A DNA stretch of 64,000 bases from a bacterium (GCA_965199855.1 OZ241326.1:960001-1024000); one strand, 5' to 3'. Shown: positions 12,352 through 26,378, counted from the first letter of the stretch. Notes: a model not told the origin generated them from the sequence alone. Numbers and translations are program-made.

Positions 12352-14160
12352 TCAGCGAATCGCCCGCCGGACGGAGGTCATGGCCCCGAAGGGGTCCGGC
12401 CTCCGGAGCCGCTCTCGGGCGTCCGCGTCTCCCTTGAGGTGCCAGTCGAACCACGCCCGCGCGTACCAGTCGCGGATCACGTGGGGCAGATACGCCTCGC
12501 CCGCGCTGGGGACTTCCGCCCAGCCGAGCTGTACGTAGCGCTCCCCGCCGCCTCCCGGCGGAGCGAAGGCGCGCGCGCCCGTGGGCTTGCGCGTCCGCTC
12601 CGGGGTCTGGCCGAAGGGCAGCGCCCCGCGCCGGAACGCCGGCCAGGGGAAGAGGCGCGCGAAGTCCTCCACGAGCGTGCCATGGTCGGTGTCGCGCGCG
12701 ATCACCAGCAGGCGGTCGGAGACCGCTCGCCGCCACCCGCTGAGCGCGACCGGCTGCGGGTTCCTCGCGCGATCGGGCGCGGCGCGCTCGGAGGCGAGCG
12801 GAAAGGCCGCGGCGGGGTCGCCCCCGGCCGCCGCCACCGCCGATTGGAACAGGCCGATGAAGATGCTCTGCACGAAGGCGTCCTCGTCGCCGATCATGAT
12901 CAACAGGGGCTTGCGGTTGCCGACGGGCAGCGTCTCGCCGCCCTCTTTCGTCTCGCCCGCGCCGAACATCTCCTCCGGCGTCCAGCTGAAGGGCGGGGCG
13001 TTGTTGAAGCCGAGCGCCGCGGCCGCGCCCGGCAGGTGGTTCGCCGCGAGCTGCGCCGTCATGGAGCCCAGCGAATGGCCGGCCAGTCCCACGCGCGCGC
13101 CGTCAATGCGCCCCGCCAGCAGGCCGCACAGACCGCGCGCCGCGCTGGTCGCGCCCATGGCGGCGAGCGCGGGGCGGCAGGTCTCCTTCTTCTCGCCGAG
13201 CAGCCGCGCGGTTCGCAGCGTCAGCCTCACGTCGTCCACGCGCCGGCGAAAAAGGTTGCGCATCATCGCCATGGCGCGCTCCACCCCGCCGGGGACGAGC
13301 TTCTCCTTCGGCGGGTCGAAGCCGGCGGGCGGCGCGAACCCCCGTCCCTCGCGCCCGAACGCGAGGCGGTAGAAATAGGGGACGACCTTGGCCTCGCCGA
13401 GCATCAGCGCGTAGGCGCGCTTCACCTCCTCGGGCGAGGCGCGCCTGGCGAAGGGCGAATCCGGGTCGTGGAACGCGAGCGCCAGGCCGCCGTCCGAGAC
13501 GAAGGTGGGCGCCGCCACCACGTAGCCGCGCGAGGCGAGAAACTCGGCGAAGGAGCTCCACATGCCGTGGCTTCCGCCGAGGCCGTGGGCGAGAACCACG
13601 AGGGGAAACCTCCCCTCGGCGGGCCGGGCGCCGATCCACGCTCCGAGCGGGGCGTCGAGGGTGCGCCGGCGAATCTCGCGGAGGGCGTCCCCGCGCGCCG
13701 CCCCCTTCGCTTCGGCGAGGGTTCCGCCGCCGCGAAGGCGGACGTGCCGCGGCGGCGGCCGGGGCGCCGCGGCGATTCGCTCCGCCAGGGAGCGATCCCG
13801 AAAGTAGAGGTCGAAGAACGTAGCTCGCCGCCCGCTCGCTGCGGGGCGGGGGGAGCGCGGCCCGGCGAGGCGCCCGCGCGCGGGGTCCGGCGCCGCCGGA
13901 TACCACAGCTGGAACGGCGCCGTCCGGGTCTGGCCCGCCGCCTCCACCCGGCGCAGGAGGGCGCGGTATTCGGGGCGGCCGTAGGCGGCGTTCCAGGGGT
14001 CGAAGCGCTGATGCCTGTCCACGGCGAAGCCGGTGAGCGTCCCCACGGCGTAGTCGCCGTAAGCCGCCCCCGAGGGCAGGGCGCGCAGCTGCGCCGCCGC
14101 GCCGCCGGGGTTCGCGATAGCGAGGACGAAGGCGAGCGGCAGCGCCGCCAGGAATTTCAT
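12352..14160 (-). CDS. Secreted alpha/beta hydrolase (PAF-acetylhydrolase-like)
   Basis: Signal peptide; FPLVVLAHGLGG, LASRGYVVAAP, nucleophile GHSLG. Confidence 0.75.
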   Translation of the reverse strand: MKFLAALPLAFVLAIANPGGAAAQLRALPSGAAYGDYAVGTLTGFAVDRHQRFDPWNAAYGRPEYRALLRRVEAAGQTRTAPFQLWYPAAPDPARGRLAGPRSPRPAASGRRATFFDLYFRDRSLAERIAAAPRPPPRHVRLRGGGTLAEAKGAARGDALREIRRRTLDAPLGAWIGARPAEGRFPLVVLAHGLGGSHGMWSSFAEFLASRGYVVAAPTFVSDGGLALAFHDPDSPFARRASPEEVKRAYALMLGEAKVVPYFYRLAFGREGRGFAPPAGFDPPKEKLVPGGVERAMAMMRNLFRRRVDDVRLTLRTARLLGEKKETCRPALAAMGATSAARGLCGLLAGRIDGARVGLAGHSLGSMTAQLAANHLPGAAAALGFNNAPPFSWTPEEMFGAGETKEGGETLPVGNRKPLLIMIGDEDAFVQSIFIGLFQSAVAAAGGDPAAAFPLASERAAPDRARNPQPVALSGWRRAVSDRLLVIARDTDHGTLVEDFARLFPWPAFRRGALPFGQTPERTRKPTGARAFAPPGGGGERYVQLGWAEVPSAGEAYLPHVIRDWYARAWFDWHLKGDADARERLRRPDPFGAMTSVRRAIR

Positions 14161-14239
14161 GCTTTTCTCCCGTTCCCTGAAAGCGCGGCGGCGAGAAGGG
14201 CGAAGTCCCGCGGAAGCCGAAGCCTCGCCCGCCTCGTCT

Positions 14240-14740
14240 TTACGGCTTTTTCCAGGAGCAGGTGGATTTGGAGACGAGCCATTTGTCCGGCAGGTAGTCC
14301 GTCCGGTAGGGGCACTCTCCGCTCATCCCGGCGTATTTTCCGGTGCCGCCCATGATGCGCTGGACGCCCCGCCCGCCGCCGCCGACCTGGATGTCGCCCG
14401 CGCTCCTCTCCGCCAGCAGATAGAGCTTGTCGCCCGCCGAGTCGGTGAACGCGCAGGGCGCCTGAAGCTGGACGCCCTTCTTCGTTTTCTTCACATAGAC
14501 GAGGCACGCCGCGCCGAAGTTCGCCCCCGCCGGGAAGGGGCCGCCGCTGCTCCTGACGATGGTGGCCGTTCCGCGCAGGGGACCTACGGTGACGTCGGCG
14601 TCCGCGTGCTTCATGGTCGAGTAGTCGTGGACGGCGCTCTCATAGAACTCGAAGCTGCCGCTCTCGGCGGCTAGGGCTGCGCCTGCCGAGAAGGCGAGGC
14701 CCGCCAGGGCGGCCGCCGCTGCGCCGAAGAATCTCCTCAT
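14240..14740 (-). CDS. Secreted hypothetical beta-rich protein
   Basis: RBS AGGAGG, signal peptide MRRFFGAAAAALAG, GGTGKYAG motif, four Cys. Confidence 0.7.
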   Translation of the reverse strand: MRRFFGAAAAALAGLAFSAGAALAAESGSFEFYESAVHDYSTMKHADADVTVGPLRGTATIVRSSGGPFPAGANFGAACLVYVKKTKKGVQLQAPCAFTDSAGDKLYLLAERSAGDIQVGGGGRGVQRIMGGTGKYAGMSGECPYRTDYLPDKWLVSKSTCSWKKP

Positions 14741-14877
14741 GTTCGCTCCTCCTTTTTCGTCCCTTATGAGCTTCCCGAAAGCCGGGAGGCGGCGCGCCAA
14801 GTGTAGGACGCCGCGCCGTCCGCCTTCAACCGCGCGGGAGAGGCGGGCGCGACCGGCGGGGAGGCTTGGCGTTATCC

Positions 14878-15006
14878 AAAAAATACACCCCCGGAGAGGC
14901 CGGAGGCGTCGCGAGGGTGAGATCGTTTCCCCGTGCCGCGGGGAATTGCCTGCGAAGATTTTCTCCTTGTTGAGAAAAGCGGGGCAGGCATCGATCAGCT
15001 AAAACT
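14878..15006 (-). ncRNA. tracrRNA
   Basis: Anti-repeat 14969-15005 (GUUUUAGCUGAUCGAUGCCUGCCCCGCUUUUCUCAAC) complementary to the crRNA repeat, followed by AAGG/nexus-like stem, hairpin 14927-14945, a terminal hairpin and a U6 tract at 14878-14883. Confidence 0.88.
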
Positions 15007-15012
15007 GATATA

Positions 15013-15041
15013 TTCGTAGGGCATCCCGCGGATTTTGTCAA
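15013..15041 (-). promoter_or_regulatory. Putative tracrRNA promoter
   Basis: Perfect -35 TTGACA (15036-15041), 17 bp, weak -10 TACGAA; predicts a start at ~15006, the anti-repeat 5' end. Confidence 0.5.
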
Positions 15042-15055
15042 GGGGGGATTTGGAC

Positions 15056-18013
15056 ATGCCGCCTCTCACGCTGGGACTCGACCTGGGCCCCAACTCCATC
15101 GGCTGGACGCTCATCGAAGAGAACGAAGCGGGCGACCCCGCGCGCCTGAAGGCCATGGGCGTCCGCGCGTTTCAGGAGATGGTGGACAGGAAGACCAAGA
15201 CGCCGAAGAACCACAAGAGGCGGGACGCGCGGCAGGCGCGCCGCCAGCGCGGAAGGCGAAAGATGCGGCGCGAGACCCTCCGGCGCCAGCTCGTTCGGGC
15301 CGGGCTTCTGCCCGAGGACGCCGGGGCGCTGCGCGGGCTGTTTCACGAGGCCGACCCCTACGAAGTCAGGAAGCGCGGCCTCGACGAGGAGCTGACGCCG
15401 CGCGAGCTGGGCCGCGCCATCTTCCACCTGAACCAGAGGCGGGGGTTTCTGAGCAACCGCAAGGTGCGCGACTCGGGCGAGAAGAAAAAGGAGGACGGCG
15501 TCGCCCTCAAGGAAATCGGGGAGCTGAAAAAGGAAATCAAGGAAGCCGGAAGCCGCACGCTGGGCGAGTTTCTGGCGGGCAAGCCCAAGAAGAGGAGCCG
15601 CCGCACGGAGCGGAGAATGTATGAGGAGGAGTTCGACGTCCTCTGGCGGAAGCAGGCGGAGTTTCACCCCGACTTGCTCACCGACGCCCTTCGCGCCCGC
15701 CTCCGCAAGACCCTGTTCTTCCAGCGGCCCCTGAAGGTTCAGAAGTTTCTCGTCGGGAGATGCACCTTCGAGCCGCACAGGAAGCGATGCCCCTGGCGCC
15801 GGCCGGAGGCGCAATGGTTCCGCGCGCTTCAGGACGTGAACCATCTCGAGATCAAGGACCCGAAAACGCGCCTGTACCGCCCTCTCCGGGAGGAGGAGAG
15901 AGAGGCGATCAAGGGACTGCTCCGGGAGCGGAAAACGCTTTGCTGGAAGAGCATCCGCAGGGCGCTGGGTCTCCACGAGGGCGAGACCTTCAACATCGAG
16001 GACGGCGGCAAGAAGAACCTCATCGGCGCGCGCACGCTCATCGCCGTCCGCAAAATCCTCACGAAGGAGACGTGGGAGGCCATGCCCGAAGCCGACCGCG
16101 CCGCCTTCTTCGAGGACCTGTTCAGCATCGACAAGGAAGAGCTCCTCCTGAAGCGGCTGGAGCGGCGCTGGAATCTCTCGCGCGAGCAGGCGAACGCGCT
16201 GCTGAACACGGAGTTTCAGCCGGGCTACGCCAGCCTCTCTCTGCGCGCGATTCGCAGAATCACGCCGCACCTGGAGCGGGGGCTGAACTATCACGACGCG
16301 TATCAGGAGGAGGGCTATCAGCGCGAGGATCAGAAGAAAGTCGAGGCGGGCGACGCGCTCGCTCCCGCCCCGGCTCTCAGGAATCCCATCGTCCAGAAGG
16401 CGATCAACGAGACGCGCAGGGTGGTGAACGCGATCATCCGGGAATACGGAAAGCCGGACATCATCCGCGTGGAGCTCGCCCGCGACATGAAGCTCAGCCA
16501 GAAGCGCAAGAAGGCGCTCGACCTCCAGAACAGAAAGAACAGGGACATGAACGACGAGGCGCGCAAGCTGATGGCGGAGCTCGGAGTGTTCGACAACGGG
16601 GGCAACCGGCTCAGATACCGCCTGTGGAAGGAGCAGAAGTGCAAGTGCCCCTACACGGGCAGGAGCATCGGGGGGCGCGATATTTTCAGCCCCGAGTTCG
16701 AGATCGATCACATCCTCCCCTACAGCCGGACGCTGGACGACTCCTACATGAACAGAACCCTCTCCCTGGCCTCCGCCAACCGGGCGAAGGGAAACAATAC
16801 CCCCCGGGAGTGGAAGGAGGGCGGCGAGGGGTTCGCCGACATGCTCCAGCGCGTCTCCGCCATGAAGGAGATGCCCTTCTCCAAGAGGCGGCGCTTCGAG
16901 CAGAAGGAGATCGACACGGACGGCTTCATCGACCGCCAGCTCAACGACGCCCGCTACATCAGCCGCGAGGTGAGCCGGTATCTCCAGGCGCTCGGCGCGG
17001 AGGTTCAGGTGACGACGGGGCAGGCCACCGCCGCCCTGCGCCGCTCCTGGCGCCTCGACGGAATTCTCGCCATCGACTCCGACTTGGAGAAAAACCGCGC
17101 CGACCATCGCCACCACGCCATCGACGCGCTGGTCATCGCCCTCACGAGCCGCAAGCTGTTTCTCGCCATCGCGCGCCTCTCCGCCGAGCGGCGCGAGGTT
17201 CTGGGAAAGAAGCGCTTTCCGCTTCCGCCGCCCTGGCCCGGTTTCATGGACGAGGCGCGGGAGAAGGTGGGCGGCATCGTCGTCTCCCACCAGCCGCTCG
17301 GGAAGATCACCGGCGCCTTCCACGAGGAGACCGCCTACGGGCGCATCGAGCATGAGGGGCGCGAGGCTTTCGTCCGCCGGGTTCCGCTGGAGTCGCTCAC
17401 GGCGAAGCAGGTGGAGAAAATCGTGGACGCCCGCGTCCGGGAGCTGGTGAGCGATCGCATGGCCGCCCACGACAACAAGGCCAGGGACGCCTTCGCCAAC
17501 AAGCCCCTGTGGCTGGAGCATTCCCGCAAGCGGACGGGAAGAACGCGAATCAGGACGGTTCGCGTCGCCGAGAATCTCAACCCGGACGGCCTGTTCGGGG
17601 TGAAGCGGCAGGGCGAGGAGACGCCCTTCAAGTATTACGCATACGGGAACAACCACCACGTCGAGATCATCGAGAACGAGAAGACGGGCAGGCGAAAGGG
17701 CGTCGTCGTCACGGCGATGGAGGCCGCCCGGCGCGCCCGCCGGGAAGGAGTCCCTATCGTCCGGCGCAACCATGGCCCGGAATGGCGCTTCGTCATGTCG
17801 CTTTCCATCAACGATATGGTGAGGCTCGACAAGCCCGTGAACGGCTGCGATCTGTATCGGGTTCAAAAACTGTCAGCAACAGGGCAGATGCAAATGATGT
17901 TGCGGGCGCATACGGCCGCTACCCTGGATGACAATGCAACATGTGTAAGGCTAAACCCCAACACGCTCAGGGGACGAAAGATCTCCGTCGATCCTTTGGG
18001 GAACATAATCTGA
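15056..18013 (+). CDS. cas9: Type II-C CRISPR endonuclease Cas9, 985 aa
   Basis: RuvC-I LGLDLGPNSIGW, Arg-rich bridge helix, RuvC-II IRVELARD, HNH EIDHILPYSRTLDDSYMN...NRAKGN, RuvC-III HRHHAIDA, C-terminal VDPLG; catalytic residues intact. Confidence 0.97.
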   Translation: MPPLTLGLDLGPNSIGWTLIEENEAGDPARLKAMGVRAFQEMVDRKTKTPKNHKRRDARQARRQRGRRKMRRETLRRQLVRAGLLPEDAGALRGLFHEADPYEVRKRGLDEELTPRELGRAIFHLNQRRGFLSNRKVRDSGEKKKEDGVALKEIGELKKEIKEAGSRTLGEFLAGKPKKRSRRTERRMYEEEFDVLWRKQAEFHPDLLTDALRARLRKTLFFQRPLKVQKFLVGRCTFEPHRKRCPWRRPEAQWFRALQDVNHLEIKDPKTRLYRPLREEEREAIKGLLRERKTLCWKSIRRALGLHEGETFNIEDGGKKNLIGARTLIAVRKILTKETWEAMPEADRAAFFEDLFSIDKEELLLKRLERRWNLSREQANALLNTEFQPGYASLSLRAIRRITPHLERGLNYHDAYQEEGYQREDQKKVEAGDALAPAPALRNPIVQKAINETRRVVNAIIREYGKPDIIRVELARDMKLSQKRKKALDLQNRKNRDMNDEARKLMAELGVFDNGGNRLRYRLWKEQKCKCPYTGRSIGGRDIFSPEFEIDHILPYSRTLDDSYMNRTLSLASANRAKGNNTPREWKEGGEGFADMLQRVSAMKEMPFSKRRRFEQKEIDTDGFIDRQLNDARYISREVSRYLQALGAEVQVTTGQATAALRRSWRLDGILAIDSDLEKNRADHRHHAIDALVIALTSRKLFLAIARLSAERREVLGKKRFPLPPPWPGFMDEAREKVGGIVVSHQPLGKITGAFHEETAYGRIEHEGREAFVRRVPLESLTAKQVEKIVDARVRELVSDRMAAHDNKARDAFANKPLWLEHSRKRTGRTRIRTVRVAENLNPDGLFGVKRQGEETPFKYYAYGNNHHVEIIENEKTGRRKGVVVTAMEAARRARREGVPIVRRNHGPEWRFVMSLSINDMVRLDKPVNGCDLYRVQKLSATGQMQMMLRAHTAATLDDNATCVRLNPNTLRGRKISVDPLGNII

Positions 18014-18030
18014 AGCCCAGGAGACCGCCC

Positions 18031-18924
18031 ATGATCAAAAGAATCGTAGAGATCGGTAGTCCCGCCCGTCTCTCGCTCAGCAAGAAGCAGCTGAAGGTCG
18101 AGCGGGAGGAGTTCGCCGCCGAGTCGCTCCCCGTGGAGGATCTGGGGGTTCTGATTCTCGACCACCCCGCCATCCGTCCCTCACAGGGGCTGCTATCCGA
18201 GTGCATGAAGAACAACGTGGCCGTCGTCATGTGCGACGAGAAGCACCTGCCCGCCTCCGTCCTGCTTCCCCTGGACGGCCACACCCTGCACAGCAAAATC
18301 GTCAGGGAGCAGGCCGCCGCCACCCCCGGCAGAATGGGCCGCATCTGGCGGGCGATTGTCCGCGCGAAGATTCTCGCCCAGGCGGACGCCCTGGACGCCT
18401 TTGACGAATACGGCGGCCCGCTTCGCGCCATCGCCGGGCGCGCCGGACGGGAGAACCCCGCCCACGCCGAGGCGCGCGCCGCGCGGATGTATTGGCCCAG
18501 AATGTTCGGCGAGGACTTCAGGCGCAACCGCGCCCTTCCCGGCGTGAACCGCCTGCTGAACTACGGCTACTCGCTCGTGCGCGCGGCGACGGCGCGGGCG
18601 GTCGTCGCCGCGGGGCTTCACCCCGCCTTCGGTCTCCACCACCACAACCAGTACGACGGCTTCTGCCTCGCCGACGACCTGATGGAGCCTCTGCGCCCGA
18701 TGGTGGACCGCAGGGTGCGCCTCATGCGCGACGCGCCGGACTTCTGGGGGGAGGAGCCGAAGCTCGGCAGGGAGGAGAAGCGCGAGCTGCTGGGCGCGCT
18801 GGCGGGCGAGGCGCGGCTCGGCGGCAGGACCTACCCCCTTCTCACCGCCCTGCAATACTACGCCGCCGGCGTTCGCCGCGTCCTCTGCGGAGAGGAGAAG
18901 GAGACGGACATCCCCCGGCCATGA
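18031..18924 (+). CDS. cas1: Type II CRISPR-associated Cas1
   Basis: PVEDLG, CDEKHLP, EARAARMYW, NRLLNYGY, GLHH, LADDLMEP; follows cas9. Confidence 0.96.
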   Translation: MIKRIVEIGSPARLSLSKKQLKVEREEFAAESLPVEDLGVLILDHPAIRPSQGLLSECMKNNVAVVMCDEKHLPASVLLPLDGHTLHSKIVREQAAATPGRMGRIWRAIVRAKILAQADALDAFDEYGGPLRAIAGRAGRENPAHAEARAARMYWPRMFGEDFRRNRALPGVNRLLNYGYSLVRAATARAVVAAGLHPAFGLHHHNQYDGFCLADDLMEPLRPMVDRRVRLMRDAPDFWGEEPKLGREEKRELLGALAGEARLGGRTYPLLTALQYYAAGVRRVLCGEEKETDIPRP

Positions 18925-19250
18925 CCTTCGGGGGGCTGCGCTCCATGTGGCTCATGGTGATGTTCGACCTGCCGACCGACACGAAGGCGGCGCGCAAGGC
19001 GTATCAGGCGTTTCGGGGCGCGCTGCTGGAGGACGGCTTCACCATGCTCCAGTATTCGGTCTATGCCCGCCACTGCCCGAGCAGCGAGAACGCCGGGGCG
19101 CACGAGAGGCGGGTGAACGCCGCCCTGCCCCCCGACGGGGAGGTGCGGCTCCTTCTTTTCACCGACGCGCAGTTCTCGCGCATGAAAATTTTTCACGGAA
19201 AGGTTCGGGGGGCGACGGAGAAGGCTCCCGATCAGGTCTCGCTGTTCTGA
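18921..19250 (+). CDS. cas2: CRISPR-associated Cas2
   Basis: MWLMVMFDLPT, FRxxLLEDGFTMLQYSVYAR; ATGA overlap with cas1; no csn2 or cas4 follows, hence II-C. Confidence 0.96.
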   Translation: MTFGGLRSMWLMVMFDLPTDTKAARKAYQAFRGALLEDGFTMLQYSVYARHCPSSENAGAHERRVNAALPPDGEVRLLLFTDAQFSRMKIFHGKVRGATEKAPDQVSLF

Positions 19251-19280
19251 CCCGCTTCGGGAGCCTGAACCCCAACCGGT

Positions 19281-19340
19281 GCTGATCGATGCCTGGCGCA
19301 ATTCACAACTACAAGAAGTGACTGGTTTATTGCGTTTCCC
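19281..19340 (-). ncRNA. Solitary degenerate repeat plus spacer-like sequence; putative regulatory crRNA-like guide (scaRNA/CreA-like)
   Basis: 19281-19309 = GCTGATCGATGCCTGGCGCAATTCACAAC (array repeat minus ATTATA, 1 deletion, 1 substitution); the adjacent 19310-19322 is the exact reverse complement of 19636-19648. Confidence 0.75.
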
Positions 19341-19396
19341 AGCTTCTTGCCCTACTATCAAATGACCCGTGGCGCGGGGAGAAGCCTATGTGCTGA

Positions 19397-19507
19397 CTAG
19401 CGGGATTTTGGCTTCGACCGCTTATGCGGCTTTACTGGTACCGTTTTGGGACCAGGCTTGTTGCCAGGACGAACTTGCCGCACTTTCTTCTGGCAATTAT
19501 TAGCCAT
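19397..19507 (-). CDS. 36-aa basic Lys/Arg/Pro-rich peptide MANNCQKKVRQVRPGNKPGPKTVPVKPHKRSKPKSR (putative Cas9-repressed effector or toxin)
   Basis: Strong RBS AAGGAGG just upstream of ATG; downstream of a canonical sigma70 promoter; function inferred only from context. Confidence 0.65.
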   Translation of the reverse strand: MANNCQKKVRQVRPGNKPGPKTVPVKPHKRSKPKSR

Positions 19508-19628
19508 AGCTCCCTCCTTTCTCCTCTGGTCATCACCCAGAGGTGGAAAAGTCAGGGCGAACGAGCGGATTTCCCCGCGCCACGGGGAACTCAAGTAGAT
19601 TTCATCTCTAACGCCCACCGCGTATATG

Positions 19629-19657
19629 ATACTACGTCACTTCTTGTAAGAAATCAA
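19629..19657 (-). promoter_or_regulatory. Sigma70 promoter of the small peptide, containing the guide target site
   Basis: -35 TTGATT (19652-19657), 17-bp spacer, -10 TAGTAT (19629-19634), AT-rich UP-like tract beyond -35; protospacer seed 19636-19648 lies in the spacer. Confidence 0.7.
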
Positions 19658-19811
19658 TAAAATAATCTGGAAAATAGCATATTTTATTCCCATCCGCCGC
19701 AATCGCTTGGCTTGATGATATTTTCCTTGCGCGCTCCCGGTAGATGAGCCCCGCCAAGATACTCGCCTTTGTCCGTCCTCGGTTGTGTTAATCAATGCGC
19801 CTAGCAGACAG

Positions 19812-19860
19812 AAAAGGCTCCCTAGCGGATCACGTTGTTGTGACCTGCTTCCGGGAGCCT
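19812..19860 (-). terminator. Putative terminator of the array transcript, within the duplicated cas2 3' end/leader
   Basis: AGGCTCCC...GGGAGCCT stem with inner pairing, followed by UUUU on the minus strand. Confidence 0.45.
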
Positions 19861-19894
19861 AAACCTAACCGGTTCAAACCGTTCGAGAGAACAT

Positions 19895-21377
19895 ATTATA
19901 GCTGATCGATGCCTGCCCGCAATTCACAACTGACATACCCAGTGCTCCGCCGCGCGCTTCATTATAGCTGATCGATGCCTGCCCGCAATTCACAACTGAC
20001 GTTTTCGGCGACGTCGTACTCAATCGATTATAGCTGATCGATGCCTGCCCGCAATTCACAACCCAGTCGCTGGCCTTCGCGCTCGGCCACGATTATAGCT
20101 GATCGATGCCTGCCCGCAATTCACAACTCGCGCACGTAACGCTCCGCGTCGTCCTCGATTATAGCTGATCGATGCCTGCCCGCAATTCACAACTCAAGCA
20201 CGCGGGAGAGCCGGACTTCTCCATTATAGCTGATCGATGCCTGCCCGCAATTCACAACGACCTCGCGCTCAGGCTGCGCGCTGAGTTATTATAGCTGATC
20301 GATGCCTGCCCGCAATTCACAACCGTGGGGGGCGAAGGTTCTCACGCGAGGCGATTATAGCTGATCGATGCCTGCCCGCAATTCACAACCCGGCAAACCC
20401 CTTTGAACCGCCTTTTTTCATTATAGCTGATCGATGCCTGCCCGCAATTCACAACTTCGGCAATTTGTCGTTCCGGCAACCGTTGATTATAGCTGATCGA
20501 TGCCTGCCCGCAATTCACAACCGGTGAACATTTCCCATCTGCCTCTCGAAGATTATAGCTGATCGATGCCTGCCCGCAATTCACAACCGCATGCGCTGGG
20601 CGGCGCTCGCGCATCTCATTATAGCTGATCGATGCCTGCCCGCAATTCACAACTGCGCGGGGACATTTGCCGTGGCGTCCCTATTATAGCTGATCGATGC
20701 CTGCCCGCAATTCACAACTCAGGGGCGCATGGATCCACCTGGACGGGGATTATAGCTGATCGATGCCTGCCCGCAATTCACAACCGATCCTGACGCAGCC
20801 GGAGGTCGTCGCGCATTATAGCTGATCGATGCCTGCCCGCAATTCACAACCGCGAGGGGCGGACAGGCCCAGCCCATGCGATTATAGCTGATCGATGCCT
20901 GCCCGCAATTCACAACCCTCCGCGATCATGTCCTCCGTCATCCCCTATTATAGCTGATCGATGCCTGCCCGCAATTCACAACATCCCCGCTCCCGTCCTC
21001 TTTCGAGTTGGCATTATAGCTGATCGATGCCTGCCCGCAATTCACAACGGATATCATTCAATGGATTCTCCCTCAACCATTATAGCTGATCGATGCCTGC
21101 CCGCAATTCACAACATCGGCCGCCGCCCGGGCGCGGACGCCCACATTATAGCTGATCGATGCCTGCCCGCAATTCACAACTGTGCCGCCCGAGGACGAGC
21201 GGCATCGGCATTATAGCTGATCGATGCCTGCCCGCAATTCACAACTGAAGGCGATGACGCCGTTCGCCGTCGGCGATTATAGCTGATCGATGCCTGCCCG
21301 CAATTCACAACTCTCGCCGCGGGTCGATGGCAACGCATTCAATTATAGCTGATCGATGCCTGCCCGCAATTCACAAC
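19895..21377 (-). CRISPR. CRISPR array, 23 identical 36-bp repeats and 22 spacers (17 of 30 nt, 5 of 29 nt)
   Basis: Plus-strand repeat ATTATAGCTGATCGATGCCTGCCCGCAATTCACAAC. Its minus-strand form GTTGTG...CTATAAT has the II-C layout and pairs with the tracrRNA, so the array is transcribed toward cas2. Confidence 0.98.
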
Positions 21378-21714
21378 CGCAGATCAGGAACATCGTCGCG
21401 CTCGGAATCGGCGCCATATTCGCCTTGCGAGCGTTGATCGAGCGGACGGCGAGGAATTGATGGCGGGCTGACAGCTCGCCGAAATTCATAATTTTTTGCG
21501 GTATTTTTATTATTCCAACGGGGTTTGTCCCCCCCCCCGGTCGCCACGAAAAACGAGGTCGAATTTCCCCGGGTTCCAGCCCCCGGGACGGCGCGCGTCA
21601 AAGGCGCGACATCGGGGCGGAACGGCTCGACTGAAAGGGGGCATGAAAAGCAGATTGTATCTAAATTTATGCAAAAGCGCGATCCGCGAGAACGCGCCGG
21701 TCGGGGTCGCCGGC

Positions 21715-23682
21715 TTACCGCGCCGCCTGCGCCAGCGCGGTTGCCGCGTCCGCCTGCGCCCAGGCGGCGCTCATCGCTTCCCAGGTCTCGCCCATGGCGG
21801 CCTTCCCCTTTTCCACCGCCGCCTGCGCCGTCGTAGTTCCCGCGGCCCGCGTCTGCTCCCACGCCGCTTTCGCCGCGCCCAGGGTCGCCGCCGCCTGCGC
21901 CAGCGCGGCGTCCATTTTCGCCCACGCCGCCCGCGCCTTTCCCTTCCCTCTCGCCGCCGCCTTCGCCGCGTCCGCCGCCTTCAGGGCCTTTTCCATGGCC
22001 GCCTTCGCCGCCGCATACCACGTCGTCTGCGCCCTGTTCGTCTCGTTGCGCGCCGCCTTTATCGCCCGCCAGACCGCCAGGGTCGCCGCGTCCGCCCGGT
22101 CGAGCGACGCCTGAGCCTTCTCCTTCCCCCTCGCCGCCGCCCTCAGCGCGGCGTCCGCCTGCGCCAGCGCCGCCCGCGCCTTTCCCTCAGCCGCCTTCGC
22201 CCGCGACGCTCTCGTCCGGGCCGCGGCTCTCTCTCGCGCGGCCTTCGTCAAAGCCGTCCGCGCCTGCGCGGCCTGGGCCTTCTCCCTCGCCGCGTCCGCC
22301 CGGGCGCGCGCCGCCGACTCATGTCTTGACGCCCGGAGGCTCTCCGCATACGCCCGAGCCGCCTGCGCCTTCGCCGCGTCAAAGGCCGCCGCGGCCTGCT
22401 CCCGCGCCGCCTGCGCCCGAGCCATCCTCACCGCCGCCGCCCGATCCCGCGCCGCCGACGCGTGGGCCCTCTCCAGCGCCGCGTGCGCTTTTTTCAGCGC
22501 CGCATCCGCCCGCGCCCACGCCGCCTTCGCTTTTCTCCGGGCCGTCTGAGCCGCCCGCGACGCCTTCACCCGCGCCGCCGCCGCTTTCCACGCCGTCTGC
22601 GCCGCGCGCTCCCGCGCCGTCGCTCTGTTCCTCACCGCCTTCGCATTGGCCGCTCTCGTCTGGGCCGCGGCTCTCTCCCGCGCCGCCTTCTCGTGCGCCA
22701 TCCTCGCCTTCGCCGCCCGCGCATGCGCCGCTCGCGCCTTCGCCGCGGCTCTTTCCCGCGCCGCCTGGGCCTGAGCCATCCGCGCCTTCGCCGCCCGCCC
22801 CGCCGCGTCCGCCTGGGCGCGCGCCGCCTGCGCCCTCGCCGCCTGCGTCCGCGCGGTCTCCCACGCGGCCCGGGCCCTCGCCGCCTGCGCCCGCGCGGCG
22901 CTCCACGCCGTCTGCGCCGCGCGCTCCCGCGCGTCCGCCGCCTGCCACGCCTCATCCGCCGTCCGCAGCCCCGCCTTCACCTGAGCGTTCTGCGCCGCCG
23001 CCATCTTTTCCAGCTTCGCCGCGGTGGCCGCCTGCGCGGCCTTCATCTTCTCCCACGCGGCCTGCGCCGCCGCCTCGTCCCCGTTCCACAGCGCCGCGGC
23101 CCTCTCTCTCGCCGCCGCCCGCACCCGGGCCATGCCCTCCGCGTATATCCCCAGCTCCGGGAGAGCGTCTTCCAGCCCGGCGGGCCCGGGCCTGGTCCCC
23201 CGAAGCAGCCGCGCTTCCCATTCCTCGCGCGCCGCGTGCGCCTTCTCCCACGCCGCGGACGCCCTTTCCCACGCCGCCTTCGCCTTCTCCCACGCGGCCT
23301 GGGCCGCCGCCTCGAGCGCCGCCGCCTCGCGCGCCGCGGCGTCCGCCTTCTCCTGGGCGGCCTGCGCCGCCTTTTCTCTCGCCGCGGCTTTTTTCCACGC
23401 CGCCTGCGCCCGCGCCGCCGGGGTCGCCGCCGCCCTTTCCCACGCCGCGGCGTCCGCCTTCTCCCGCGCCACCGCCGCCAGCGCCGCCTTTTCTCTCGCC
23501 GCCGCCCTTTCCCACGCGGCCTGCGCCGCGCGCGCCCGCGCCGCCGCCCTTTCCCGCGCCGCGAGGGTGGCCCGCGCCCGCGCCGCCAGGGATTTCTCTC
23601 GCGCCGCGCTCGCCCCGAATGACGGGACGGGCGCGGCAAGCGCGATTGCCGCCGCCAGCGCGCAGATCAAAAGCCTCCGCAT
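21715..23682 (-). CDS. Secreted Ala-rich repetitive coiled-coil protein
   Basis: Signal peptide MRRLLICALAAAIALAAP; recurring AQAAWE(R/K)AAARE(K/R) units across 655 aa. Confidence 0.6.
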   Translation of the reverse strand: MRRLLICALAAAIALAAPVPSFGASAAREKSLAARARATLAARERAAARARAAQAAWERAAAREKAALAAVAREKADAAAWERAAATPAARAQAAWKKAAAREKAAQAAQEKADAAAREAAALEAAAQAAWEKAKAAWERASAAWEKAHAAREEWEARLLRGTRPGPAGLEDALPELGIYAEGMARVRAAARERAAALWNGDEAAAQAAWEKMKAAQAATAAKLEKMAAAQNAQVKAGLRTADEAWQAADARERAAQTAWSAARAQAARARAAWETARTQAARAQAARAQADAAGRAAKARMAQAQAARERAAAKARAAHARAAKARMAHEKAARERAAAQTRAANAKAVRNRATARERAAQTAWKAAAARVKASRAAQTARRKAKAAWARADAALKKAHAALERAHASAARDRAAAVRMARAQAAREQAAAAFDAAKAQAARAYAESLRASRHESAARARADAAREKAQAAQARTALTKAARERAAARTRASRAKAAEGKARAALAQADAALRAAARGKEKAQASLDRADAATLAVWRAIKAARNETNRAQTTWYAAAKAAMEKALKAADAAKAAARGKGKARAAWAKMDAALAQAAATLGAAKAAWEQTRAAGTTTAQAAVEKGKAAMGETWEAMSAAWAQADAATALAQAAR

Positions 23683-23963
23683 CGTTTAGAGCCCCCCGTT
23701 GTCCGCCGCCTTCTCTCTCGCCGCCGTCCTGATCGTATGGCGGATCGCCCGCGCCGCATTCATTCCCGCGACCGATCGTCGCCGGACAAAGGCCTGAGCC
23801 TTGCGAACGCGGCGCGCATAGCGATCCTCCATCCGCACCGATGCCGTGATTTCCTTTATATTATATCTGATTGGCGTCTGACCGCAATTCGCGGCGAGCC
23901 GGTATGTAATATACTATATTTCGCAGGCGGAAAGGGCGGTTTTAACGGGATTCGGAGGGGAGC

Positions 23964-24659
23964 ATGGCGCGGCGGGTGATTCTGCTATCGACCCTGGGGC
24001 TGCTGATCGCGCTGGCTGGCGCGCCGGGCTACCGCTGGCTCCGCGCGCGTCTCGCCCGGGATCTCCCGATATACTCGCGGCTGCCCGATTTTGAACTCCG
24101 AGACGCGGCGGGCCGCGCCTTCGCGCGCGAGCGCCTGCGCGGGAAAGTCTGGGTGGCGGACTTCATCTACACGCGCTGCGAGGACGCCTGCCCCCTGCAG
24201 ACGGCCGAGATGCGAAGGCTCCAGCAGGCGTTCTCGGGCGAGGGGGATTTCCGGCAGATTTCCATCACCGTCGACCCCGCCCACGACACGGGGGCGCGTC
24301 TGGCGGCCTACGCGCGCAAATACGGCGCCGAGAGGTCGCGCTGGTTCTTTCTCACCGGCGAGGAGGGGGCGATTCGGGAGCTGGCGCTCAAGGGCTTCCG
24401 CCTGAGCTACGCGACGAAAAAAGCCGCGCTTCCCGATAAATCCCCCGGCGGATGGATTCTCCGGCTCGCGCTTCCCCGCGCCCGCGCCCACCACCCCGGA
24501 CACGGGGAGGGGAAGGACGCGCCCGGCGTCCTGATTTCCCACAGCTCGCGCTTCGTCCTCATCGACAGGCGCTTCAACGTCCGGGGCTATTACCACAGCG
24601 ACGACCCCGCTTCCCTGGAGAAACTGAGGAGGGAGCTGCGGATGGTTCTCGGGGAGTGA
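23964..24659 (+). CDS. SCO1/SenC copper chaperone
   Basis: N-terminal anchor, FIYTRCEDACP, ITVDPAHD, HSSRFVLID. Confidence 0.9.
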   Translation: MARRVILLSTLGLLIALAGAPGYRWLRARLARDLPIYSRLPDFELRDAAGRAFARERLRGKVWVADFIYTRCEDACPLQTAEMRRLQQAFSGEGDFRQISITVDPAHDTGARLAAYARKYGAERSRWFFLTGEEGAIRELALKGFRLSYATKKAALPDKSPGGWILRLALPRARAHHPGHGEGKDAPGVLISHSSRFVLIDRRFNVRGYYHSDDPASLEKLRRELRMVLGE

Positions 24660-25533
24660 GCCTCCCGCCCTTCCGCGCGGCTTTCGCCGCCTCGATCATC
24701 TCCGCGTAGCCCTCCCGGTAGGATGGATAGAGAAATCGGTAGCCGGAGGCTTTGAGCCTGGCGTTCGAGCATCGCCTGTTCGCCGCCGCGCGCCCGGAGA
24801 CGGCCATATCGGCGCAGGTCTCGCGCGGAGGCGGCGCGCCCAGCCGCGCCGCCAGCCAGTTCAGCACCTCGCGGCGATCGGCGGGCTCGTCATCCACGCC
24901 GATATAGACCTCCTCCGGCGCTTCCATCATCATCAGATGCGCGAGGGCGCCCGCGCAGTCGTCGCGGTGGATTCGGTTGGCGAAGCGGGGCGGGCCTTCG
25001 GGGCAGGCCGCCCGGCCCGCGCGGACGGCTTCGAGCAGGCGCGCGCGGCCGGGGCCGTAAATGCCCGCAAGCCGCAGGATTGTGGCGGGATGTCCGCTCT
25101 CCAAAAAGGCGCGCTCCCCCTCCAGCAGAACGCGCCCCGCCCGGCGCGCGGGCTTCGCGGGCGAGCGCTCGTCCACCCGGCCGCCGTCCGTCTGCTCATA
25201 GACGGCCGTGCTCGACGTGAAGAAAACGCGCCGGGGTCTTTCTCCCTTCGCGTCGAGCGCTCTGAGGAGATTCCGGGGGCCTTCCGCGTACGCCGCCCGG
25301 TAGGCGGCCTCGCCGCCTCCGCCGGAGGAAGCCGTATAGAAGATGAAGTCGAGACCTTCGGGGAGGGCGTCGCCCAGCGCTTCCTCCCGGACGTCGGCCC
25401 GTATCGGCACGATCGGCCCGGGCGGAGGCGCGGGGCTTCTGCGCATCCCCCAGACGAAGTGTCCCGCGCGGCCGAGCCTGGCGCCGAGCGCCGTCCCGAC
25501 GTAGCCGCATCCCGTAATGAGGACTCTCGCCAT
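24574..25533 (-). CDS. NAD-dependent epimerase/dehydratase (extended SDR)
   Basis: LITGCGYVG, FTSSTAVY, LRLAGIYGP, NRIHRDD; 3' end overlaps the SCO gene. Confidence 0.88.
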   Translation of the reverse strand: MARVLITGCGYVGTALGARLGRAGHFVWGMRRSPAPPPGPIVPIRADVREEALGDALPEGLDFIFYTASSGGGGEAAYRAAYAEGPRNLLRALDAKGERPRRVFFTSSTAVYEQTDGGRVDERSPAKPARRAGRVLLEGERAFLESGHPATILRLAGIYGPGRARLLEAVRAGRAACPEGPPRFANRIHRDDCAGALAHLMMMEAPEEVYIGVDDEPADRREVLNWLAARLGAPPPRETCADMAVSGRAAANRRCSNARLKASGYRFLYPSYREGYAEMIEAAKAARKGGRLTPREPSAAPSSVSPGKRGRRCGNSPGR

Positions 25534-25556
25534 GAAGCGCCTGTTTTCGGGGCGCC

Positions 25557-26378
25557 CTAGGGCGCTCCCGGCGCGGGGACCTGGCCGTGAAAGAGGCTTT
25601 TCAGGTGATGCGGCCGCATTCGCAGGCCGGCGTAGAAGGGTCCGAACTCTCCATACCAGACGCTGGCCTCGTCGAAGCGCATCTCATAGACGAGGCGCTT
25701 GAACACGAGCGGGTATTCCGAGAACAGATACACCCCCCACTCCCAGTCGTCGAAGCCGATGCTGCCGGTGATGATCTGCTGGACGCGGCCGGCGTATTTC
25801 CTGCCGACGAAGCCGTGCTCGCGCATCATCTTCCGGCGCGTCTCTATCGGCAGGCCATACCAGTTCTTCTCCTCGCCCCTGCGCTTGTTCATCGGGTAGA
25901 AGCACAGATATCTCGCCTCGGGGACGCCCATGTAGAGGCGATCCTTCATGCGCTCGCGCTGACCGGCCATCTCCTCGGCCCATTTCGCCTTCCACTCCTC
26001 GCTTCCCGGCTCCATCCCCTCCTCCTTGAAGCGGGCGTGGAGCTTCACCGTCATTTCATACAGGCCAAGCTCCAGAAACGAAAGATAAGAGGTCGTCTCC
26101 TCCATGTATTCCGCCAGCGCGAGCCGCCGGACGCCCAGCTCGGCCTCGTGGAGGGCGTCCAGCGTGGGCCGGAAGTGGAGAAAGAGGAGATCGCCCTTGT
26201 GCCCCAGCAAACTGAAAAGGGCGCTCTCGCCGGATGCGGGCCGGGCGATGGCCGCGAGGTGTCCGGCCGCCTCGTCCAGGACGCGGCGGCGGCGCGCGCC
26301 GTCGAGCCGTCCCCAGGCGGGCCAGTTCACCCGGAAGACATGGTGCAGAATCGCCCAGCCGTCGAGCGTCTCGGGCAT
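25557..26378 (-). CDS. chdC: Coproheme decarboxylase (HemQ; chlorite-dismutase family)
   Basis: ETLDGW, GHKGDL, CFYPMNKRRG, MREHG, GSIGFDDWEWGV, EMRFDE; start may be slightly upstream. Confidence 0.85.
   Translation of the reverse strand: MPETLDGWAILHHVFRVNWPAWGRLDGARRRRVLDEAAGHLAAIARPASGESALFSLLGHKGDLLFLHFRPTLDALHEAELGVRRLALAEYMEETTSYLSFLELGLYEMTVKLHARFKEEGMEPGSEEWKAKWAEEMAGQRERMKDRLYMGVPEARYLCFYPMNKRRGEEKNWYGLPIETRRKMMREHGFVGRKYAGRVQQIITGSIGFDDWEWGVYLFSEYPLVFKRLVYEMRFDEASVWYGEFGPFYAGLRMRPHHLKSLFHGQVPAPGAP

Follow-up and report, generated by a model that had tools for sequence, protein, structure and literature searches.

The 64-kb window analysed here (positions 960001-1024000 of OZ241326.1, GCA_965199855.1) comes from a bacterial genome of 3.04 Mb, called G000 below, and contains a complete type II-C-like CRISPR-Cas9 locus, arranged in the order trans-activating CRISPR RNA (tracrRNA), cas9, cas1, cas2 and array. 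Between cas2 and the array lies a small module, also present at this place in a second species (G017), in which a gene for a 36-residue peptide accompanies a spacer-like stretch and a single degenerate repeat. The best explanation, favoured by a narrow balance of the sequence evidence, is a captured peptide cassette with a guide resembling the small CRISPR/Cas-associated RNA (scaRNA) or CreA, which would make Cas9 repress the cargo gene rather than serve immunity. Repression through the guide-target match, taken by itself, is considered probable. The preliminary description of this DNA had proposed that the guide silences the adjacent peptide gene, and this is supported by the identity of seed and target in G017, by the placement of the target between the -35 and -10 boxes and by the pairing of the repeat with tracrRNA.

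The putative 13-nt seed, GTCACTTCTTGTA, is the reverse complement of positions 19636-19648 (TACAAGAAGTGAC), which lie inside the 17-nt spacer of the peptide promoter, so that the target sits exactly between the two promoter boxes. On the guide side the match lies directly against the repeat, closing the spacer-like stretch at its 3' end, the position of the seeds in type II guides. With up to one mismatch allowed, the 13-mer is found at two sites in the window against 0.01 expected, a number reached by none of 100 shuffles, and the whole genome holds no further site for its 11-nt core. The seed is unchanged in every run with contigs covering the site (X6, X7, X8 and X9), as is the promoter target in the contigs of X6, X7 and X8, the X9 contig ending at 19562. 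This 13/13 match, kept in all covering contigs, suggests that the guide still works in the species of G000.

The lone repeat, although degenerate and truncated at its 3' end, is predicted to pair with the tracrRNA anti-repeat at -40.5 kcal/mol, compared with -14.4 +/- 3.4 kcal/mol for shuffles; the full array repeat, as minus-strand RNA, gives -52.5 kcal/mol. In G017 the corresponding values are -46.0 kcal/mol for the degenerate repeat with its own tracrRNA, -51.4 for the full repeat and about -15 +/- 3.5 for shuffles. Since tracrRNA pairs with the minus-strand repeat RNA, the CRISPR RNAs (crRNAs) should be made from the minus strand, running toward cas2, and this is also the strand of the lone unit. 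No anti-repeat was found on the minus strand 3' of 19281, where the sequence is that of the hairpin at the cas2 end, and no Rfam family matched within 13000-26000.

The same region can be read on the plus strand as a second tracrRNA, with an anti-repeat at 19281-19309, a CAAGAAG..CTTCTTG stem and a CCCGTGGCGCGGGG hairpin. By eye, the elements at 19281-19380 do follow the order of a tracrRNA, and the tracrRNA of a related locus, L015, contains ACAAGAAGTGA. However, a covariance model built on seven tracrRNAs (R1), which scored true genes at 135 and 139 bits, did not match this stretch at E<=10, and it gave the lone repeat of G017 13.6 bits against 13.8-24.9 bits for ordinary array repeats on that strand. 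The GC-rich hairpin of this reading is the cassette's own clamp, a feature of the peptide family described below, no plus-strand terminator is present, and the arrangement is absent in G017. The plus-strand tracrRNA was rejected for want of a model match beyond the anti-repeat, and it is regarded as highly improbable.

In G017 the lone repeat and its 13-mer are located next to cas2 in the same place and orientation as in G000, and the promoter-peptide cassette is inverted. The seed is identical in the two species at all 13 positions, as is the 21-nt promoter core (19637-19657, TTGATT plus target) at all 21, and in G017 guide and target agree at 12 of 13 positions. Outside these elements the cassette is 71% identical, and the remaining spacer-like sequence and the -10 flank are unalignable; both 13-mers are far more conserved than neutral sequence. 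Of 35 peptide codons compared, 13 are identical, 14 differ synonymously and eight non-synonymously, and since 14 of the 22 changed codons are synonymous, the peptide is under purifying selection. The spacer between the boxes is normally the least constrained part of a promoter, yet here it is conserved, which points to a factor that reads the 13-mer site. The conservation of seed and target despite inversion of the cassette is what would be expected of pairing in trans. An RNA-guided Cas9 would be the simplest reader of the site, because the seed abuts the repeat on the side and strand proper to type II systems and the repeats pair with tracrRNA.

The position of the lone repeat is explained by comparison with six further loci, which were fetched on the basis of 86-92% Cas1 identity (L015, L016, L017, L019, L020 and L021; the G017 locus with the module is L018, and L019 is a second cas locus within the same assembly). 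In five of them (L015, L016, L017, L020 and L021) the array follows cas2 immediately and begins where the lone repeat of G000 stands; the repeat scan found no array after cas2 in L019, and the peptide gene is absent from all six. After the insert, G000 carries a 67-nt duplicate of the 3' end of cas2, the linker and a repeat (repeat family D17), the copy at 19807-19873 being 73% identical to that at 19214-19280. The start of the relatives' arrays at this point and the flanking duplication together indicate that the lone repeat was once the terminal repeat of the array, from which an insertion of about 520 bp now separates it. Such a duplication is what single-crossover integration of a circle carrying the segment would leave behind.

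A DNA search combined with a peptide profile found the module only in G017 among the 41 other genomes of the family (42 with G000), and only in G000 and G017 among 51 genomes of the phylum, in one copy each and always in the CRISPR locus. The peptide gene is accordingly viewed as imported, horizontally acquired cargo. A repeated mobile element such as a miniature inverted-repeat transposable element was rejected, the module being single-copy in the genome, and a search of the module for a transposase remnant gave only noise at E<=10. As a separate observation, ARAGORN calls a 90-nt tRNA-Pro(TGG) between the cassette and the cas2-end remnant in G017 (locus L014, 8352-8441, minus strand); no tRNA or tRNA remnant is found in the G000 window.

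It can also be hypothesized that the unit is a relic without guide function, in which a stranded terminal repeat stands beside 13-mers that are copies of a recombination site or the operator of a DNA-binding protein, possibly the peptide itself. The lone repeat does occupy the terminal-repeat position of its relatives, the duplicated segment of cas2 end, linker and repeat flanks the insert as after a single crossover, the cassette is inverted between the two species, and members of the peptide family are found in the company of IS1595 transposases (8 of 45 loci), toxin-antitoxin genes and restriction-modification genes. Against this reading, one 13-mer abuts the repeat in both species on the seed strand and side of type II guides, the other fills the spacer of a promoter, and both are preserved where the neighbouring sequence is saturated with changes. 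Moreover, 86 bp separate the G017 13-mers, which do not bracket the cassette, and the single copy and missing transposase remnant noted above do not suggest a mobile unit. The relic is therefore considered unlikely.

The mechanism proposed for a working guide begins with the capture of a foreign cassette, comprising the basic peptide and its structured mRNA, between cas2 and the array. The insertion would have cut the cas2-proximal terminal repeat off the array, leaving it as a degenerate lone repeat after a spacer-like stretch. The lone unit would be transcribed on the crRNA strand, and its RNA would pair with the canonical tracrRNA and load into Cas9. As only 13 nucleotides proximal to the protospacer-adjacent motif (PAM) match the DNA, Cas9 is expected to bind without cleavage, as it does with scaRNA or tracr-L and as Cascade does with CreA guides. 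Bound to its sole genomic match, between -35 and -10, it would block transcription of the peptide gene. This gene would be freed whenever Cas9 or tracrRNA were lost or inhibited, so that the module would act, in the manner of CreTA, as an addiction module or as a sensor of Cas9 activity. In G000, a guide contained within the peptide mRNA would close a negative feedback loop.

Related arrangements are described in the literature. In the type I CreTA modules a degenerate repeat unit with a seed-only spacer match to an adjacent cargo promoter turns the effector into a repressor (10.1101/2023.03.03.530964, 10.1101/2024.01.05.574328, PMC9458426, PMC8501985), and a version with a protein toxin is known (10.1101/2024.01.05.574328). 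The module of G000 resembles CreTA in lying beside a CRISPR-cas locus, in its degenerate repeat and spacer-like stretch and in the seed match to the adjacent cargo promoter, which extends over 13 of 13 positions in G000 and 12 of 13 in G017, between -35 and -10; the same comparison includes the PAM, for which no protospacer was found. It differs in that the effector would be Cas9 with tracrRNA and not Cascade, which takes it out of strict membership, that only one repeat is recognisable in G000, that the cargo family is otherwise not linked to CRISPR, and that the guide may be within the cargo mRNA.

The scaRNA of Francisella novicida (type II-B), together with tracrRNA, guides catalytically active Cas9 to a short match in endogenous DNA and represses transcription (10.1101/2023.03.03.530964, 10.1101/2024.01.05.574328). 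The predicted RNA of G000 would likewise be small, derived from a lone repeat and encoded next to a type II locus, with a repeat part that pairs with the tracrRNA anti-repeat, although subtype and sequence are different and the target is an adjacent imported gene and not a chromosomal regulon. In type II-A systems tracr-L directs Cas9 through an 11-bp seed match to repress a promoter of its own locus, and the repression is released on Cas9 inhibition (10.1101/2023.03.03.530964, 10.1101/2024.01.05.574328, 10.1101/2024.10.29.618823). Unlike the unit of G000, which has no anti-repeat in cis and is aimed at a cargo gene, tracr-L is a single RNA with both a repeat and an anti-repeat part, and its target is the promoter of cas9. 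Since scaRNA and tracr-L establish short-match binding for other Cas9 proteins, non-cleaving binding over 13 nucleotides may be assumed for the Cas9 of the window as well.

CreR of types I-B, I-E and V-A is a degenerate mini-CRISPR RNA that directs the effector to a promoter (10.1101/2023.03.10.532045); the unit of G000 shares this design, but CreR represses the cas genes themselves, and the consulted CreR text contains no case with Cas9. According to Shmakov et al., about 6% of type II loci have mini-arrays distinct from tracrRNA, which the portion available mentions without analysis (10.1101/2023.03.03.530964), and the accessible text of a 2025 review treats Cas9 only in general terms (PMC12737573). 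A Cas9-repressed cargo or toxin module was not found in the available parts of the literature on CreTA, CreR and Cas9 autorepression, though the mini-arrays just mentioned may include such loci. The module would work like CreTA or scaRNA and is a strict member of neither.

Whether the guide is made from the peptide promoter is a separate question. According to the preliminary description, the minus strand carries promoter, 5' untranslated region (UTR), peptide, a gap of about 75 nt, spacer and repeat, and one mRNA may yield both the peptide and its own repressing guide. The order is present as claimed; the gap agrees with the 74 nt of untranslated sequence between stop codon and seed, and with a 30-nt spacer it would be about 57 nt. 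Neither a convincing promoter nor a terminator separates the open reading frame (ORF) from the guide, as had been stated. A strict scan of 19000-20100 returned no promoter-like and no terminator-like site, a negative of limited weight because the scan also misses the peptide promoter. In a laxer scan, which scored hexamer matches out of 12, the only candidate between ORF and guide was TTCTCC-18-GATAGT at 19354-19383, with a score of 7/12. The local hairpin past the peptide stop codon (-7.5 kcal/mol, z -0.4, tail UCAUUU) is no better than shuffles and is not the stable GC-rich hairpin with U-tract of an intrinsic terminator, which was not found between ORF and guide. Read-through from the array, held to be blocked at 19812-19860, indeed meets a hairpin there (19800-19870) of -30 kcal/mol (z -3.3, 0 of 200 shuffles as stable) followed by UUUUCUGUCU. 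As relatives have the same hairpin with UUUU directly after the terminal repeat, the duplicated cas2-end hairpin is taken to be the natural terminator of the array.

A natural variant in a contig of X8 lacks the 45 nt at 19329-19373, so that the repeat begins 42 nt and the seed 29 nt past the stop codon; the seed and six further bases (19323-19328) are kept. The deletion removes the arm of the fold-back described below, half of the 3' clamp and the sole promoter-like hexamer. As no promoter of its own is recognisable, the guide in G000 is most likely the 3' part of the peptide mRNA, and the peptide promoter would be its most economical source in this species, if the guide still works. Co-transcription with the peptide as the main source of the guide in G000 can nevertheless be put forward only tentatively, at less than even chance.

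The same repression could be exerted by a guide that is a separate transcript in G000, started from a weak promoter such as 19354-19383 or from within the ORF, with the peptide mRNA ending at its 3' clamp. The separate guide promoter of G017 speaks for this arrangement, as do the 7/12 candidate 32 nt upstream of the seed and the clamp helix with UCAUUU that lies just before it. The candidate is weak, however, its -35 box matching at only 3 of 6 positions and its -10 being GATAGT, it is deleted in the X8 variant that keeps seed and repeat, and the hairpin's stability is that of a shuffled sequence. A separate transcript in G000 thus appears rather unlikely.

In G017 the guide is preceded by a promoter-like TTGCAA-17-TAGATT, the -10 of which ends 31 nt before the repeat; this is the geometry of an array unit and predicts a 24-nt spacer. 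The 46 nt upstream of this spacer are weakly repeat-like (48 of 2000 shuffles score as well), and no such trace exists in G000 (1222 of 2000). The unit of G017 is best described as a putative CreA-like degenerate mini-array, divergent from the peptide gene. The claim of one mRNA for both products thus fits G000, with its lack of promoter or terminator and its X8 variant, but not G017, which is wired separately, and the shared transcript, if real, is a lineage-specific rewiring.

The seed had also been described as folded back in the precursor, and the hairpin in question is borne out as a predicted structure of -13.6 kcal/mol (z -2.2, two of 200 shuffles as stable). It is evidently dispensable in the species of G000, given that the X8 deletion removes it. 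The seed of G017 is partly paired too, with a different partner (UUACAAGG:UCUUGUAG) in a 71-nt stretch of -18.9 kcal/mol (five of 200 shuffles as stable), so that sequestration of the seed, achieved there by other sequence, may be selected.

The peptide, MANNCQKKVRQVRPGNKPGPKTVPVKPHKRSKPKSR, is translated from an ATG at 19507 behind a strong Shine-Dalgarno sequence, AAAGGAGG, and a structured 5' UTR of about 115 nt. In the fold of the full transcript the 5' clamp CCCCGTGGCGCGGGG pairs with a 3' clamp in a 15-bp helix that closes just 5' of the guide. The clamp is a feature of the whole family: a perfect run of at least 9 nt was found in 17 of 34 own pairs compared with 30 of 1122 cross-locus pairs. 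Duplex energies, by which 11 of 34 own pairs fell below the 5th percentile of cross pairs, were noisy, and the longest Watson-Crick run was therefore used as the measure. Long-range pairing of 5' and 3' ends around a small ORF is known from hok-type mRNAs of type I toxins. The peptide mRNA is similar in this respect, but the peptide is basic and proline-rich and not hydrophobic, and no antisense RNA gene is known for it. A second covarying element of the family mRNA is a hairpin just 5' of the Shine-Dalgarno sequence. A 78-aa ORF antisense to the peptide gene (19424-19660, plus strand) has no matching start and no conserved protein in G017, where the antisense frame is open for about 64 codons, and is probably a mirror-frame artefact.

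Relatives of the peptide are encoded at 68 metagenome loci and one viral locus, and the family profile matches 375 protein clusters at E<=1e-3. Among the 120 clusters listed, all source names are 'hypothetical protein' except for one uninformative metaclust entry. Pfam, NCBIfam, PHROG and PADLOC gave no match for the peptide, the matches in the ESM Atlas were all unnamed clusters, none of them above 0.83, 28 longer proteins (mostly singletons) included no informative fusion, and Rfam had no match for 14 cassette loci. In a survey of neighbours at 45 loci (80 ORFs), an IS1595-type transposase was found near the peptide gene in eight, and it was on the same strand and just upstream in the five loci scanned singly; nothing relevant on passenger genes of IS1595 was found in the literature. 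A Panacea/MqsA-type antitoxin lies upstream of the peptide gene in three of the 45 loci, HigB is present in two and MmeI/Eco57I-type restriction-modification genes in two. Genes for Cas1, Cas2 and Cas9, as well as arrays, are absent from all 69 loci. The family is an undescribed, widespread, structured small-ORF cassette that is otherwise not linked to CRISPR, and its mobile and toxin-antitoxin neighbours make a toxin role plausible.

In its fullest form the proposal is a Cas9-type addiction or sensor module, in which a seed-only guide silences an imported toxic peptide, so that Cas9 and tracrRNA are retained or are watched for inhibition by anti-CRISPR proteins; the guide of G000 would be cut from the 3' end of the mRNA it represses, output being set by the amount of active Cas9, and the peptide would be the first characterised member of a widespread, undescribed family of mobile-element peptides with 'panhandle' mRNAs. 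With all of these parts together the proposal is rather doubtful. Seed-only repressor guides are known for Cascade (CreTA, CreR) and Cas12a (CreR), and for Cas9 only in two roles, self-regulation by tracr-L and the control that scaRNA exerts on a virulence regulon; a cargo gene beside the array under repression by Cas9, if true, would extend to type II the principle of a CRISPR system that protects itself by means of a toxin. The single promoter, small ORF and guide would then form a compact natural circuit reporting Cas9 activity, useful for anti-CRISPR sensing and biocontainment designs. G000 and G017 offer a natural comparison of two wirings, with the guide in the 3' UTR of its target gene or behind its own promoter. 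The analysis also brings to light an uncharacterised peptide family of 375 clusters with a covarying mRNA clamp, often near IS1595 transposases.

A number of points weigh against repression of a toxic cargo by a Cas9 guide. The transcripts, their starts and the processing of the guide are predictions. The module is found in two species only and their seeds are identical, so that there is conservation without compensatory covariation. The 13-mer resembles ACAAGAAGTGA, the start of the tracrRNA stem in L015, and its two copies could therefore be related by common descent. No protospacer that would give a PAM was found: the 22 spacers of the G000 array and the 77 of the L015 array have no protospacer in the 42 genomes of the family, the extra matches being solitary repeats, three spacer scans of viral contigs gave no match each, a phage collection gave none, and a plasmid collection gave chance matches only (E 0.4). 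The PAM-interacting domain of Cas9 has no structural template, the solved Cas9 structures matching only to about residue 738, and the conserved flank of the target, AGAAATCAA, is no independent evidence of a PAM, since it overlaps the -35 box. Co-transcription is not a conserved design, given the inverted cassette of G017 and its guide with a promoter of its own, and the modelled clamp helix might end or process the peptide mRNA before the guide. That the peptide is a toxin, a role derived from family gene neighbours only, is possible at somewhat less than even chance. The peptide of G000 may moreover be attenuated, as it has no C-terminal cysteine, which is present in 36 of 38 aligned family members.

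Features of the locus in window coordinates
Feature	Position	Strand	Remarks
Canonical tracrRNA	14878..15005	-	divergent from cas9; covariance model R1, 135 bits
cas9	15056..18013	+	985 aa, type II-C-like; Pfam RuvC_III, HNH_4, Cas9_a
cas1	17941..18924	+	Pfam Cas_Cas1, E 2.2e-25
cas2	18921..19250	+	109 aa; Pfam CRISPR_Cas2, E 1.1e-15
cas2-end hairpin	19214..19280	-	overlaps cas2 3' end; -38.2 kcal/mol; U-tract weakened (UUCUCC)
Degenerate 3'-truncated repeat (psi-repeat)	19281..19309	-	site of the cas2-proximal terminal repeat of related arrays
Guide seed (putative), 13 nt	19310..19322	-	directly abuts degenerate repeat
Fold-back hairpin, seed with upstream CAAGAAG	19312..19349	-	5' arm deleted in natural variant
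3' clamp of peptide mRNA	19366..19380	-	complementary to 5' clamp; family-wide feature
Peptide gene, 36 aa, basic, proline-rich	19397..19507	-	111 nt including stop; TAG at 19397-19399
5' clamp in 5' UTR	19573..19587	-	pairs with 3' clamp in full-transcript fold
Peptide promoter TTGATT-17-TAGTAT	19629..19657	-	8/12 in laxer scan
-35 box TTGATT	19652-19657	-	-10 box TAGTAT at 19629-19634
Remnant copy of cas2 3' end	19807..19873	-	hairpin then U-tract; likely array terminator
CRISPR array	19895..21379	-	23 identical 36-nt repeats, 22 spacers

The solved structures closest to the cas9 product are Cas9 entries of about 1,050-1,150 residues, which are presumably of type II-C, the table of PDB entries carrying no subtype. 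On the minus strand the array repeats contain TTGCGG-16-TATAAT, with TATAAT forming the repeat end; repeat-borne promoters are known from the type II-C systems of Neisseria and Campylobacter. On the minus-strand RNA the hairpin that overlaps the end of cas2 lies 3' of the degenerate repeat.

The tracrRNA can be aligned with those of six related loci and is composed of the anti-repeat, a stem (AAGGAG..CUUC), a hairpin (CCCCG..CGGGG) and, immediately before U6, the hairpin of the terminator. The hairpin at 14930-14944 on the minus strand, CCCCGCGGCACGGGG, has a larger loop than the CCCCGAACGGGG of most relatives, and it could pair at 14 of 15 positions with the 5' clamp in the mRNA of the peptide (19573-19587, minus strand), which may be a coincidence or a contact between tracrRNA and mRNA.

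Solitary repeat-like sequences far from arrays are present in the relatives' genomes G008, G022, G025, G038, G016 and G017 (loci L103-L109); in some of these genomes an array of this type could not be detected. Within the window, beyond the array, an ORF of 655 residues, alanine-rich and internally repetitive, is predicted at 21715-23682 on the minus strand, and neither this ORF nor the plus-strand ORFs that overlap it match Pfam. It lies between the array and a solitary anti-repeat-like stretch at 23860-23945 on the plus strand, which shares 76% identity with the repeat's plus strand and in which six of seven transitions preserve G-U pairing to the repeat of the crRNA, provided that the stretch is read as plus-strand RNA. 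Beyond it, at a distance of about 25 nt, stands TTCGCAGGC, as in tracrRNA. The stretch scores just 8.2 bits (E 1.6) under the tracrRNA model and probably represents a second, decayed copy of the tracrRNA gene.

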